From: a virus
Length of the DNA stretch: 60,790 nucleotides
Strand: one strand, 5' to 3'
IMG/VR virus record: IMGVR_UViG_3300025086_000020
Within the stretch, counting starts at the first letter, position 1. The number at the start of each line of letters is the position of its first letter. Below are positions 2,471 to 7,188 of the stretch, in pieces. Made by a program: the position numbers and the translations under genes. The notes under the pieces are model-generated. The model searched no databases and was not told the DNA's origin. It worked only from the letters and a program-made list of their open reading frames with translations.

Positions 2471-2890
2471 TTAATCAGCAAAAGGAACATCCTCATTTAA
2501 ATCAGACTTAACAACCTCTTCCTTTTTCTTTTTCTTTTTTTTACCTCCATTATACTCAACTGCATGTCCTTCATCAACCAACTTTTCATTAACATTGATT
2601 GGTAGGTCTAGGTTGTCAGGATATATAATTAGAACACCCAGCACCCTTCCATACTTTCCAACTTCTTTACTTTCTACAACTAAGCTTCCTTTATCAAGAA
2701 TCTCAGTTAATCTATATTTTGCAGCCAGACCTCTTTTCTTTTCCTCTAAATCCCTAGTTCTACTTTCAGGAGTATCTATACCTGCTAGCCTTACTCTTTT
2801 ATGAACTGTTATATCAAATCCTAGATCTATGTGAACATCTATAGTGTCCCCATCAACAACCCTATCTAATTTAGCTTTATAAGTATACAT
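2471..2890 (-). CDS. Staphylococcal (micrococcal) nuclease-like thermonuclease
   Basis: VDGDTIDV ... RVRLAGIDTPE ... GRVLG ... LVDEGHAV matches the SNase fold signature. An unusual K7 run and an acidic DVPFAD tail sit at the C-terminus. Confidence 0.8.
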   Translation of the reverse strand: MYTYKAKLDRVVDGDTIDVHIDLGFDITVHKRVRLAGIDTPESRTRDLEEKKRGLAAKYRLTEILDKGSLVVESKEVGKYGRVLGVLIIYPDNLDLPINVNEKLVDEGHAVEYNGGKKKKKKKEEVVKSDLNEDVPFAD

Positions 2891-3666
2891 TAGTTCATTA
2901 TATATTTAATCTTCCCATCTTGTATATAAATACTTTGTGGTCTTCGTATTGGTTGACCAAGAATATTATACATAAGCCCATCTGCTTTTGATTTATCTAA
3001 TATTTCTCCTATTGATGAGTTACATGGCATACCTGTTTCGCAGTCTATATATTCTGTTTCTATTACTTCAATATACTCCATTACTGTGTCAGTTACAAAA
3101 AATTCTACATATTCTGTCTCTATTATAGTGTCAAAAACAACTACTTCTACATATTCTACAACATCTATAAACATAGTATCTAATACTTCTGCATATACAG
3201 TGTCTGTTACATATATATATTCAGGAACCATAACCTCAACTTCAAAAGTATCAATAACAATGTTTGTTATATATTCTGTTTCTATAATAGTGTCTAGTTG
3301 TATTATTGTTTCATATATAAAAAATGGAACTTCTAAAGTATCTATTTCATAAATATATTCTATAACTGGAACCTCTATGTTTACATAAACAGTATCACAC
3401 TCAGGTATTGGTGGAGCACAATCTAAAGGAGAAGTTGGAACTGCCCCATTTTCATCAGAAGCATCAATACAATCTTCCCAGCCATCGTTAAGCCAAGAAT
3501 TTTGAACACAACCATCAGGAGCATATTGAGTCCAGTTAGCAGGGTCATCCCCACAATAAAAACCTTCTTGTTCAGAACAAGCAATACATAATTCTTGAAA
3601 ATCATAATCTTGACCTTTTAAACTCCAACTTAATAAAACAAATAAAATAATAATAAATTTTTTCAT
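2890..3666 (-). CDS. Secreted repeat protein: signal peptide, LDL-receptor-A-like DGxxDCxDxSDE motif, DT/EY repeat core, T9SS-like C-terminal segment
   Basis: N-terminal MKKFIIILFVLLSWSLKGQ. NDGWEDCIDASDENG at aa 59-74. Eight D-T-initiated acidic/hydrophobic repeats at aa 90-215. C-terminal LMYNILGQPIRRPQSIYIQDGKIKYIMN resembles the last strands of a type IX secretion CTD. Confidence 0.55.
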   Translation of the reverse strand: MKKFIIILFVLLSWSLKGQDYDFQELCIACSEQEGFYCGDDPANWTQYAPDGCVQNSWLNDGWEDCIDASDENGAVPTSPLDCAPPIPECDTVYVNIEVPVIEYIYEIDTLEVPFFIYETIIQLDTIIETEYITNIVIDTFEVEVMVPEYIYVTDTVYAEVLDTMFIDVVEYVEVVVFDTIIETEYVEFFVTDTVMEYIEVIETEYIDCETGMPCNSSIGEILDKSKADGLMYNILGQPIRRPQSIYIQDGKIKYIMN

Positions 3667-4746: not shown

Positions 4747-5325
4747 TTAATCAACCCCTATTACTTTTGCAATACTAGCTGTAGCCACCCCCTTCACCTT
4801 AGTAATGCTTCCTGACGCAACATTATTAACCTCATGACCATATCCAGCAACAGTGTAGTCTACTGTTACGTATAGTTGAAAAATTTGCACTACAGTGCTG
4901 TCAGTTGTAGTGACTGAGATTCTCATGTCATTCACATCACTATCACTAACACTACCCCCAAAGTTTATTGCAGTAGCATTAATAGTTGTAGGAGACGTAT
5001 CTGTTGTAACAAATGTTGTGTCAGAAATACTACCAAAAGTTGTTGCTGACGAAGAATCACCTATTTCCATTTCAAAACTAGCATCAGAACTTCTTGGATT
5101 GTGCTTTTTAAATACTGCTGTAACAACGAAGTTGTTAAATGTAACACCACTTAAGCCACTTGTATTACCTAAAAGAATTACGAATGATTGATCTGCACTA
5201 GAGTTACGAACATACGTAGAGTTACTTGAGTCATTTATTTTTGTTACATCAAAACCACTTCCAGACTCATTAATAAAACTACCTGAACTAATTTCGTGGG
5301 ATGGTTGTAATACTACTGTTGCCAT
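4747..5325 (-). CDS. Ser/Thr-rich hypothetical protein, possibly virion-surface or fibre-associated
   Basis: 192-aa ORF with S/T/N/D-rich composition like the neighbouring fibre-like ORFs. No catalytic motif. Confidence 0.4.
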   Translation of the reverse strand: MATVVLQPSHEISSGSFINESGSGFDVTKINDSSNSTYVRNSSADQSFVILLGNTSGLSGVTFNNFVVTAVFKKHNPRSSDASFEMEIGDSSSATTFGSISDTTFVTTDTSPTTINATAINFGGSVSDSDVNDMRISVTTTDSTVVQIFQLYVTVDYTVAGYGHEVNNVASGSITKVKGVATASIAKVIGVD

Positions 5326-5328
5326 ATC

Positions 5329-6087
5329 TTACGCACTTACTACTACCCATGTGTTATCTGGACAAAACCATATTTCATCATCATTGCCCATTTTATATCC
5401 TATTACTCTTACAACCTCGTTATTGTCAGCTGGTGCAGTCATATCTGCATCACCTGCTGAGGCATCTGATAAATATACTGGGTCTCCAAAATTATTATCT
5501 GATGTATCGTGGTCTAAAGTAAACATGCCTCTTAATAACATCCCATCTGTGGCAGGGTCTGTACCTAAAGATATTGCCAATAAACTAGTTGATGTACTTT
5601 CAGCATTTGACTGAGCTTTAAACCAGGTTGCATTATTACTTCCATCTTTTCCCAAATAACATATATCTCCCTGAGCTATAGAGGAGCCAGCACCAAAATA
5701 AACAACATCTCCATCGTGGTCAAAATGAGTGTCATCAGCAGTTACAGTCATTTTACGTCTTTTTATAGACGTAGAATAATGCATATCAGGAGTGGTTAAT
5801 ATTATATTACCATCAGCACTAAGAGTTAAATTTGCTGCTGTTGCATCGTCATCAACAGTGCTTATTGTGGTTGCTCCATGTGTTGTTGTTGCAATAGTGA
5901 ATTTATCACCTGTATCTTCATTTGATAAAAGTTCTAGTGTAGATATATTGCTAGAATTAGAAAAGGTTAAGTACCCACTTAAAGAGTTAAGGTAAAGTGT
6001 ATTAAAATAACCCTTATCCCAATATTTAGAGCTAGAACCTATCTGCCCATCATTATTGTTGTATGGTTTAATTGTTCTTGTACCCAT
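5329..6087 (-). CDS. Fibre-like protein
   Basis: N-terminal IGSSSKYWDKGYFNTLYL resembles the G-S-S-x-x-x-W/F-x-x-x-Y motif common at phage fibre N-termini. T/S/D-rich body. Confidence 0.4.
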   Translation of the reverse strand: MGTRTIKPYNNNDGQIGSSSKYWDKGYFNTLYLNSLSGYLTFSNSSNISTLELLSNEDTGDKFTIATTTHGATTISTVDDDATAANLTLSADGNIILTTPDMHYSTSIKRRKMTVTADDTHFDHDGDVVYFGAGSSIAQGDICYLGKDGSNNATWFKAQSNAESTSTSLLAISLGTDPATDGMLLRGMFTLDHDTSDNNFGDPVYLSDASAGDADMTAPADNNEVVRVIGYKMGNDDEIWFCPDNTWVVVSA

Positions 6088-6099
6088 ACTTTAAAGATT

Positions 6100-6780
6100 T
6101 TATTTCTCAAATCCAAGAATTATAGTAATTGGACTAGTATTATAAAGGTCTTTATTTACAGCACTAACACTAGCACAGTTCTCTTCTAATACAAGGTTTG
6201 TGGCATCAGTAATTGTTTTAATAGTACCAATAGCTTGATCGTCTTCATCAGCTAACACATCTCCAACAGCGAAAGTTTGTCTAGCGTCTGTGGTCTTAAC
6301 CACTACTGCTGTTGTGTTAGTAGCTGTTTCTGTAGAAACTTGAACTGTTGAACGAAAATCAGGTGTTCCATCACAAATCCCACCTATATATATTTTACCA
6401 CTACTTTGGCCAGGTATTACAAACCCATCATAAGCACTATTTGAGCCACCAACAGAAAAACGATCTAGCCCATCTCCATACTGTTGAACTATAACCTTCC
6501 AGTTTCCAATAATACTATTACTTGGTGGCAAGCTTGCTGTAGCGTTTTGTGCACCCATAGATGCTGCATTTGATGTGGAAAAAAGCAAATCCATTCCAAA
6601 CTCTTGCCTAGATCCATCTGTACCTCTAACCACAAATGTAACAGTTTTTAATTTTAAACTACCTCTTACTGGTAAAGTTACTTCTGTCCAGTCAAATAAA
6701 ACATCTTCGTCAGCATATGCTGCTGCTGCTTGCCTACTTGCAGTAAGAACTGGTTTTATCGTTGTTGTATAATAAGCCAT
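6100..6780 (-). CDS. Hypothetical structural-like protein carrying one VGD module
   Basis: FAVGDVLADEDDQAIGTIKTITDATNLVLEE (6181-6273) is the same module seen in ORFs 10691..12712, 21008..22411 and 26935..32700. Confidence 0.45.
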   Translation of the reverse strand: MAYYTTTIKPVLTASRQAAAAYADEDVLFDWTEVTLPVRGSLKLKTVTFVVRGTDGSRQEFGMDLLFSTSNAASMGAQNATASLPPSNSIIGNWKVIVQQYGDGLDRFSVGGSNSAYDGFVIPGQSSGKIYIGGICDGTPDFRSTVQVSTETATNTTAVVVKTTDARQTFAVGDVLADEDDQAIGTIKTITDATNLVLEENCASVSAVNKDLYNTSPITIILGFEK

Positions 6781-6817
6781 TTTATTATAAATTTTAAGAT
6801 TATCATTTATTTATTGT

Positions 6818-6825
6818 CAAATATA
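6818..6825 (-). promoter_or_regulatory. -7 box TATATTTG (minus strand) for ORF 6100..6780
   Basis: Plus-strand caaatata is TATATTTG on the minus strand, 37 nt upstream of the ATG at 6780. Confidence 0.4.
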
Positions 6826-6838
6826 AGAAATATTTATT

Positions 6839-6846
6839 TATATTTG
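6839..6846 (+). promoter_or_regulatory. -7 box TATATTTG at the start of the plus-strand late arm
   Basis: TATATTTG lies 18 nt upstream of the ATG at 6865. A TTG at 6814-6816 is in -33-like position. It sits back-to-back with the minus-strand box. Confidence 0.45.
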
Positions 6847-6864
6847 TCATTATATTTTAATTAA

Positions 6865-7188
6865 ATGCTAGAAAAAAACTATTTAAAGTATTATAGAGAT
6901 ACTCTGTTTTACTTTAGAGATAACTATAGACTGAAGATTTCAGATATAGAATTTTTGTTCTTTGTGTATGATTTAAAGTATTTCACAGGCACTAATATAA
7001 TAAAAGGATATAAGTGTTCAATGACTTTTTTGACTAGAAATATGCCAGATTTACTAAAAAAAGGTTATCTTGCAATATATCAAGAAAGAGCTAGGCACAG
7101 GGCTAGGAAATATATGATCTCACATAAGGGTAAAATAATGATAACTAGGTTCTATAAAATATTAGAACAAGAAGAAGATAAAATATAA
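6865..7188 (+). CDS. Putative winged-helix DNA-binding protein
   Basis: First gene of the plus arm. LLKKGYLAIYQERARHRARKYMISHKGK resembles a MarR-like recognition helix plus wing. The assignment is weak. Confidence 0.3.
   Translation: MLEKNYLKYYRDTLFYFRDNYRLKISDIEFLFFVYDLKYFTGTNIIKGYKCSMTFLTRNMPDLLKKGYLAIYQERARHRARKYMISHKGKIMITRFYKILEQEEDKI

Follow-up and report, generated by a model that had tools for sequence, protein, structure and literature searches.

A marine phage gene pair encodes a predicted outer-membrane barrel and an LDLa-like exported protein ending in a putative short sorting signal

IMG/VR virus record IMGVR_UViG_3300025086_000020 is a stretch of 60,790 nucleotides, here called the window. 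It is a phage sequence, with genes for a large terminase, a portal protein and a capsid-like protein showing 29% identity to podophages of Flavobacterium, Cellulophaga and Maribacter. DnaB, a PD-(D/E)XK nuclease and a protein with a GroES domain are also encoded, and the GC content of the genome is 32%. The subject of this study is a minus-strand open reading frame (ORF) for a 258-aa protein, here called the target, together with the outer-membrane β-barrel gene directly upstream of it (Table 1). The target begins with a signal peptide, continues with an acidic domain rich in Cys and a tract of D-T units (118 aa), and closes with a conserved 50-aa tail. An earlier note on this DNA, made from its letters, had described a phage-encoded, exported protein with a Cys-rich segment at 3418–3510 and a repeat core at 3022–3399. 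Both placements are correct: they correspond to C53–C83, which contains NDGWEDCIDASDENG (aa 60–74), and to aa 90–215. Its description as phage-encoded and exported is likewise supported.

Table 1. Features of the target gene, its partner and other genes of the window
Feature	Residues or length	Position	Strand	Remarks
Target ORF	258 aa	2890..3666	(-)	ATG start
Sec/signal peptidase I (SPI) signal peptide	aa 1–18	3613..3666	(-)	MKK, hydrophobic run, small residue at −1; predicted cleavage ...LKG↓QDYDF
Cys-rich acidic N-domain, LDLa-like variant	aa 19–90	3397..3612	(-)	PF00057, PDB profile search, marine homologs
Ca-cage motif W58-x-N-D-G-W-E-D-C-x-D-x-S-D-E72	within C53–E72	within 3451–3510	(-)	
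DT/EY tract, eight D-T-hydrophobic units	aa 91–208	3043..3396	(-)	composition, sequon counts
Conserved C-terminal domain	aa 209–258	2893..3042	(-)	C209-x5-C215 loop, helix 219–229, three or four short strands
Putative short sorting signal	~aa 218–258	2893–3015	(-)	
Upstream partner, outer-membrane β-barrel	342 aa	3671..4699	(-)	signal peptide ...AEA↓Q; C-terminus ...FGFNYLMF; 4 nt before target ATG
Staphylococcal-nuclease-fold endonuclease		2471..2890	(-)	phrog_452, E 3e-41; start codon overlaps target stop
Protein with two predicted transmembrane segments, Lys-rich (KKK) C-terminus	72 aa	2228..2446	(-)	holin-like in shape only
Lys/Gly-rich protein	193 aa	1644..2225	(-)	
Lys/Gly-rich protein	305 aa	7192..8109	(+)	
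Protein with Cpn10/GroES domain	216 aa	14235..14885	(+)	
Giant ORF of structural block	1921 aa	26935..32700	(+)	
Giant ORF of structural block	3602 aa	35546..46354	(+)	

The target starts with MKKFIIILFVLLSWSLKG↓Q, which is signal-peptide-like, the signal-peptidase site being placed by eye. Conservation was assessed with 22 homologs that are 66–91% identical to the target. Gln19, at position +1, is invariant, and Ala, Ser or Gly occupies position −1 (22/22 members). A signal peptide followed by Gln fits the Bacteroidetes Q-rule, under which Gln stands at +1 of the SPI site (PMC5837995, PMC10653852), and Q-rule proteins in Bacteroidota phages have a published precedent (PMC10367356). All nine Cys of the protein are invariant, as are the NDGWxDCxDxxDE motif and the tail residues Y233, G237, Y247, I248 and G251. 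The homologs are 244–342 aa long, and the number of DT/EY units varies among them through clean indels. The target as a whole is acidic, with 51 Asp/Glu to 9 Lys/Arg.

Relatives of the target occur on 231 viral contigs in IMG/VR, and metagenomes contain 1234 clusters of the family (E ≤ 0.01), all of them unnamed. The relatives are found in marine metagenomes, including Tara 0.1–0.22 µm fractions, on contigs of 60–90 kb. The features described here are therefore not due to chance, being conserved across the 22 homologs and a large metagenomic family. Neither the target nor the barrel has a match by tblastn among 50,697 deposited phages (INPHARED), nor in PHROGs or PADLOC. The suggestion that the protein marks the phylum of the host was borne out by the Gln at +1 in every member, by cellular homologs in marine Flavobacteriales and by the capsid similarity to phages of Flavobacteriia.

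The N-domain contains seven invariant cysteines (C27, C30, C38, C53, C66, C83 and C90). It contains the sequence W58-L-N-D-G-W-E-D-C-I-D-A-S-D-E72, which had been likened to the acidic Ca cage of LDL-receptor class A (LDLa) modules; N60, D61, G62, W63, D65, C66, D68, D71 and E72 are invariant. The Pfam model PF00057 (Ldl_recept_a) aligned to the target with E = 0.011 and 16.4 bits, below its gathering threshold (GA) of 24.1, and only over profile positions 14–35 of 37. When a profile of the target family was compared to all PDB sequences, 29 matches were obtained (E ≤ 10), and 29/29 are chains with LDLa modules aligned on the cage segment, the best being LRP1 CR (2knx, E = 0.009). A match to the family profile was also obtained in eukaryotic P0399, which is built from classical LDLa repeats (8 stretches, E 1e-4). 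An exhaustive profile search placed the N-domain inside large marine proteins as well, two of which (P0270 and P0278) read YICDGWDDCVDASDExxC and thus retain Cys IV and VI of the LDLa module.

Like LDLa modules, the target N-domain is small and disulfide-rich, with the W-x-x-D-G-x-x-D-C-x-D-x-S-D-E cage and Cys equivalent to I, II, III and V. It departs from them in the six-Cys pattern (I–III, II–V, IV–VI): the position of Cys IV is taken by Asn60 and there is no Cys 3–4 residues past E72, the displaced Cys VI probably being replaced by a C27...C83 pair. A 14-residue C2–C3 loop (DDPxNWTQYxPxG) and the sub-threshold Pfam score also set it apart. From the motif and the profile matches, we conclude that the N-domain is a bacterial LDLa variant with an intact Ca cage and one re-wired disulfide, and it is probably Ca-binding and disulfide-rich. 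The LDLa likeness therefore stands in its acidic cage, in PDB matches that are all LDLa and in variants that keep Cys IV, while the Pfam threshold and the six-Cys pattern do not bear it out.

The tract that follows is flanked by C90 and C209. Seven residue types make up 105 of its 118 positions (V22, E20, I19, T15, Y12, D10 and F7), and Lys, Arg, Gly, Ser, His, Trp and Cys are missing, leaving 30 acidic and no basic residues. Eight DT units of 8–18 aa begin at aa 91, 109, 125, 139, 155, 163, 179 and 193, and there are seven EY. These observations agree with the earlier account of a D-T/E-Y core bracketed by Cys, and both units quoted there as examples are present. Tandem Repeats Finder detected no repeat at the DNA level.

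The DT units resemble the general O-glycosylation sequon of Bacteroidota, D(S/T)(A/I/L/M/T/V), the third position of which was later extended to further residues, including Phe (PMC10897501). The strict motif is matched by 7/8 units and the extended motif by 8/8. Composition-preserving shuffles had a mean of 0.67 sites and 0/20000 reached seven, a result that shows only non-random order, as expected of any repeat. Each homolog has 7–16 sequon sites, nearly all of them compliant, and Ser occurs in the tract solely as DS(I/V) replacing DT(I/V). The Asp of every DT unit is invariant, and so is the hydroxyl residue with one T/S exception. Because of this T/S exchange and the invariant Asp, the units are read as sequons. 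The length of the tract ranges from 0 to ~200 aa among proteins that carry the same C-terminal module. Together with its position between passenger and signal and the lack of a fold in the AlphaFold2 (AF2) model, this variability suggests a glycosylated stalk or spacer. Its content of V/I/Y/F/L/M is 56%, which is atypical of a disordered linker and makes a rigid β-structure conceivable. The stacked β-solenoid proposed earlier is unsupported, and the tract is better explained as belonging to a sorting module of host origin, in which it is variable and laden with sequons.

This module was found in over 50 clusters of marine proteins. In the exhaustive profile search, positions ~185–259 of the family profile match the extreme C-terminus of many proteins of 270–500 aa, and in 53/150 representative proteins the module is located at the extreme C-terminus behind unrelated passengers. 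Toward their C-terminus, these proteins have a short tract rich in DT and, after it, the strongly conserved ...TEYIDCDTGLPCxSGMxEIIxKSKxDGKIYNLLGQEIxRRxGIYIEGGEIKYRF. The passengers include trypsin (P0299), Laminin_G_3 (LamG; P0286), thyroglobulin-1 (P0292), DUF285/PARCEL repeats (P0305), a SprB repeat (P0342), internalin-like leucine-rich repeats (LRR; P0303 and P0361) and multiple CTDxxACNYNxxAxxDDGSC modules. P0361 has no tract; in P0335 and P0342 it spans ~15 aa, and the ORF of locus L007 has a very long one.

Two of the module genes are in cellular loci, with housekeeping genes around them. One, L006, belongs to the metagenome-assembled genome Flavobacteriales SP256. The other, L007, belongs to the single-amplified genome AG-343-M05 of an 'uncultured Bacteroidetes' and is positioned between lysS/rpiB and the gene of an M28 peptidase. 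Over tract and tail, the target is 42–46% identical to these two proteins (E 3e-27 and 7e-23). The contexts sought for two module proteins were limited to contigs shorter than 2 kb. Since repeat core and tail occur together on unrelated cellular passengers, they represent one host-derived module. Judged by its sequence, the phage protein is a tiny LDLa-like passenger that the phage has set on this tract-and-tail module.

The shared passenger modules (the LDLa-like N-domain and CNYN) end in the short tail in 53 of the 150 representatives, in a canonical type-A C-terminal domain (CTD) of type IX secretion systems (T9SS) in six, and in a second short tail in two. The occurrence of the same passengers with different C-termini argues that these C-termini are interchangeable signals. 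The second kind of short tail, ...IDILGKxxxxKGFxLxIYDDGxxxKKYxIK, was seen in the marine proteins P0280 and P0337, which carry the LDLa-like domain and CNYN modules; from its sequence, this tail may represent one more short sorting signal that has gone unrecognised.

In the target, 43 residues follow C215 and contain the string that the earlier note had compared to the terminal strands of T9SS CTDs; ~41 of them lie past the putative cleavage site. The AF2 model, which was run with an alignment of 22 sequences and has an overall predicted local distance difference test (pLDDT) value of 41, is confident solely in this tail, with pLDDT 77–81. It shows helix 219–229 and strands at 232–233, 239–240, 246–249 and 252–255. 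Ahead of the helix, at the position of the published cleavage motif, a small residue is followed by Ile (S↓GI or S↓SI). Downstream are a B-like motif, Y233-N-x-x-G237, a seven-residue gap, a D-like motif, S245-I-Y247-I248, and the E-like K252/K254. K252 is conserved in at least 90% of the 22 homologs, and the family consensus of motif D is GxYI.

This arrangement resembles the 'short' CTDs of Prevotella intermedia, 48 of which, with lengths of 40–55 aa, undergo genuine cleavage and glycosylation (Ye et al. 2025, PMC11969387). In their motif B, a Tyr is conserved and a Gly invariant; few residues separate B from D, Ile comes after the GxY of motif D, and motif E is basic (PMC11969387). They are predicted to fold into a sheet of three strands, in some cases together with a helix, and the passengers are typically LRR proteins, proteases and DUF285 proteins (PMC11969387). 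The target tail, too, forms the very end of a signal-peptide protein, and its ~41 aa fall within 40–55. It shares the Tyr and invariant Gly of motif B, the short B–D gap, the xY plus Ile of motif D and the basic motif E, as well as the predicted three-stranded sheet with optional helix, and the passengers overlap (LRR, proteases, DUF285). In contrast to the P. intermedia signals, which are the only short CTDs reported (PMC11969387), the module occurs in marine Flavobacteriales and phages and has a CxxxxxC loop and the DT/EY tract upstream, and ~13 aa rather than 6–11 separate cleavage site and motif B. The C-terminal sequence of an LRR_5 protein from Prevotellaceae, ...YDLQGRRISEKPSRGIYIEGGKVKARP, shares 38% identity with the module; a word-indexed protein search with this Prevotellaceae tail returned one fragment.

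Compared to canonical type-A CTDs (TIGR04183/PF18962), the tail has a nearly identical motif-B segment (KIYNLLGQEV in place of the marine type-A KVYNLVGQEV), GxY and a terminal Lys, and the kinds of passenger are the same. It lacks the YPNP start and ~22 aa, equivalent to two strands, between B and D, and is ~41 rather than 70–100 aa long. The 70–100 aa, seven-stranded β-sandwich of type A is thus not what AF2 predicts for the tail, which is a helix with three or four short strands. A HMMER profile of the tail placed motif B in register in 5/7 canonical type-A CTDs, with non-significant scores, and there is no T9SS CTD structure among the 29 PDB matches of the family profile. Membership of the type A or type B CTD families was rejected on the negative profile results. 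The proposed T9SS-like C-terminal signal therefore persists as a short-CTD architecture that is modular on host proteins, and fails as a match to curated CTD models or to the seven-stranded fold. From architecture and context rather than from homology, we infer that the tail is a short-type T9SS signal.

The partner barrel likewise carries a Q-rule signal peptide (AEA↓Q), and its C-terminus is ...FGFNYLMF, a β-signal of the outer-membrane protein (OMP) type. Its family has 291 relatives, all marine, and no match in Pfam or NCBIfam (E ≤ 10). Among IMG/VR loci that extend far enough upstream, 75/75 have a homolog of the barrel gene upstream of the target gene on the same strand, directly adjacent in 64 of them with a median gap of 7 nt; the pairing is also found in loci L001–L004. 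AF2 modeled the barrel with a predicted TM-score of 0.64, twelve long strands and a 75-residue insertion that contains helix 224–247. Among viral structure models it has one true relative, UniProt A0A516LKJ4, which is also 342 aa long (28% identity, TM-score 0.63). Foldseek otherwise returned 12-stranded outer-membrane barrels, namely FapF, EspP/NalP/BrkA, NanC, OMPLA and invasin, at TM-scores of only 0.3–0.4. FapF is the top match (E 1e-6, TM-score 0.33–0.39), and many unrelated 12-stranded barrels score alike.

The pair could on this evidence be an export cassette, in which the barrel translocates an aggregation-prone DT/EY protein in the manner of FapF, autotransporters or intimin, and the product is an amyloid-like surface fiber or rod made independently of T9SS. 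The top structural matches are indeed polypeptide-transporting 12-stranded barrels, and the phage barrel is modeled, like FapF and the autotransporters, with 12 strands and a long internal helix (224–247) and is encoded beside a repetitive, β-prone secreted protein. The linkage is strict, with 4-nt spacing, and the core is repetitive and 56% β-forming hydrophobic residues. However, TM-scores of 0.3–0.4 and sequence identities of 6–10% make the similarity generic to barrels and translocation only an analogy. The same tract and tail are, moreover, present on dozens of host proteins without an adjacent barrel gene, which indicates that export of the module in cells needs no dedicated barrel, and some module proteins (P0361) do without the tract. 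We consider this explanation unlikely.

Closer in function, by analogy, are the type B CTD cargo proteins of T9SS and their PorP/SprF-like shuttles. The genes of cargo and shuttle are neighbors, cargo made in excess requires co-expression of its shuttle, and the PorP/SprF genes lie downstream of the cargo (PMC12618676). As in that system (PMC12618676, PMC9143113), the phage genes form an adjacent, co-expressed pair of cargo and outer-membrane barrel. They differ in having no PorP/SprF or TIGR04131 match, in their reversed order and in being phage-borne. PorP/SprF identity of the barrel was rejected on the negative profiles.

The reading that we favor, at a probability of about 0.5, is that the target is a Sec-exported, O-glycosylated and T9SS-sorted mimic of host surface proteins, which remodels the cell surface together with the phage barrel. 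The protein would first be exported to the periplasm by Sec, and its N-terminal Gln cyclised. The host's machinery for general O-glycosylation would then decorate the eight D-T-(I/V/L/M/F) sequons, turning a very hydrophobic and acidic tract into a glycosylated stalk. The last ~41 aa, with B (YNxxG), D ((G/S)xYI) and E (K), would act as a short T9SS signal that routes the protein via the type IX translocon of the host, with cleavage near S217/S218. The co-expressed barrel may serve as the cognate outer-membrane partner, shuttle or anchor, following PorP/SprF logic. The phage thus probably plants a protein of its own on the surface of the infected cell. Least certain is the net effect: the remodeled surface might block superinfection, or keep progeny phages from being adsorbed by debris and infected cells.

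Several observations weigh against this reading. The CTD models TIGR04183 and TIGR04131, to which the earlier note had pointed as a check, and PF18962 have no match at E ≤ 10 in the whole protein, the 58-aa tail alone or the cellular module proteins. In hhalign, the tail reached 13.7% over 14 columns with seven canonical type-A CTDs, compared to 2.9% for an unrelated control. The likeness to the P. intermedia short CTDs was drawn from their published description, not at the level of sequence, and in the window motif D has S245 instead of Gly, with Gln238 past the motif-B Gly where Arg or Lys is preferred (PMC11969387). AF2 confidence is low in the N-domain (pLDDT 33–43), whose model has no match in Foldseek, and in the tract (pLDDT ~26), which shows no secondary structure. 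As for the partner, the barrel has no similarity to the PorP/SprF (TIGR03519), PorV or PorQ models (NCBIfam, E ≤ 10), its gene is upstream of the target, opposite to the PorP/SprF order, and the module-bearing genes of cells have no barrel neighbor.

A bolder version of this T9SS reading is tentative and, taken whole, rather doubtful. The cassette would then be self-sufficient, comprising cargo and cognate outer-membrane shuttle or anchor, with a tail from an unrecognised short-signal class of uncultured marine Flavobacteriales and a barrel that represents a new phage-borne family of T9SS shuttles or anchors. Through it, an O-glycosylated, heavily expressed viral protein would take over the type IX route and coat the cell.

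The genes around the pair bear on two other explanations. Target and barrel are part of an operon-like minus-strand block running from 6780 to 1308, with gaps of −1 to 47 nt. The first gene of the block has a Bacteroidetes −7-like TAnnTTTG 45 nt upstream of it (6781..6900), although the motif is frequent genome-wide and makes weak promoter evidence. Genes for staphylococcal nucleases, such as the one that follows the target in the window, are near the pair in 18/80 loci, and thioredoxin genes in three sampled contexts (L001, L002/L003 and L004). A homolog of the 72-aa protein with two transmembrane segments is located 750–1250 nt downstream of the target start in 44/80 IMG/VR loci, and a Peptidase_M15_3 gene is near the pair in one relative locus.

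Neighbors of this kind would suit a lysis accessory, with the barrel and an acidic, Ca-binding secreted protein destabilising the outer membrane late in infection as a spanin substitute of Bacteroidota phages. The pair lies beside the conserved holin-like gene and, in relatives, near the peptidase gene; no spanin-like genes were recognised, and the acidity of the target is extreme. Yet the target has neither an inner-membrane anchor nor a lipobox and hence no spanin-like topology, and a spanin-like role was rejected on this ground. Its tail and tract are common to ordinary host surface proteins, the holin is assigned by shape only, and chelation of divalent cations is, by our reasoning, implausible in seawater. 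A lysis role is thus quite improbable.

Still less probable, to a degree that makes it very hard to favor, is that the target belongs to the virion as a tail-fiber accessory or receptor-binding adaptor rather than to the host envelope. In L001 and L002, the pair directly follows a giant structural-type ORF on the same strand (at least 1353 aa, with faint SprB-repeat matches, in L001 and 4416 aa in L002), and the neighboring ORFs of the window at 4747–6780 are Thr/Ser/Asn-rich in the manner of fiber proteins. In the window itself, however, the minus-strand block with the pair runs on toward replication genes and lies outside the plus-strand structural block. The homologs of the module are cellular secreted proteins, both phage proteins start with a Q-rule signal peptide that is cleavable, and the C-terminus of the barrel is the OMP-type ...YLMF β-signal. 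A virion protein was rejected on the signal peptides and this β-signal.

For T9SS cargo encoded by a phage there is one published precedent, the 'Cryophage', whose cargo bears canonical CTDs (Bellas et al. 2020, PMC7468147). There, too, phage genes carry a Bacteroidota C-terminal sorting signal and are presumed to hijack host secretion. The Cryophage signals are canonical type-A and sit on enzymes (endoglucanase, GH39, PA14), with no linked barrel (PMC7468147). In the target, by contrast, the tail is short and non-canonical, the LDLa-like passenger is tiny and a barrel partner is obligatory. What is new is that a short-signal module occurs outside Prevotella, that a marine phage lineage of very high abundance has captured it and that it comes with this obligatory partner.

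If the T9SS reading is true, short T9SS signals would be a major sorting signal of abundant uncultured marine Flavobacteriales and not a peculiarity of one oral Prevotella. They would be missed by TIGR04183 and PF18962, and predictions of marine secretomes would be incomplete. A very common marine phage lineage, known mostly from Tara and other ocean viromes, would be investing in a conserved two-gene envelope cassette that copies the architecture of host surface proteins. The cassette would offer a handle on surface remodeling by Bacteroidota phages, such as superinfection exclusion or receptor masking, and the Q-rule, sequons and tail would together form a sequence-based host marker. The DT/EY tract may be a natural, length-variable sequon array, which, if true, would be useful for glyco-engineering and for glycan-shielded stalks.

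Other genes of the window were noted in passing. The structural block contains two giant ORFs, and the 216-aa protein has a Cpn10/GroES domain; one related phage contig encodes both Cpn60 and Cpn10 (L004, 1113..2977). The two Lys/Gly-rich proteins, of 193 and 305 aa, are encoded on opposite strands and have no family match. Their C-termini are nearly identical, with the shared pattern MA(I/V)(I/V)IAIGRPK(A/V)N(K/R)K and 11/15 identical residues.

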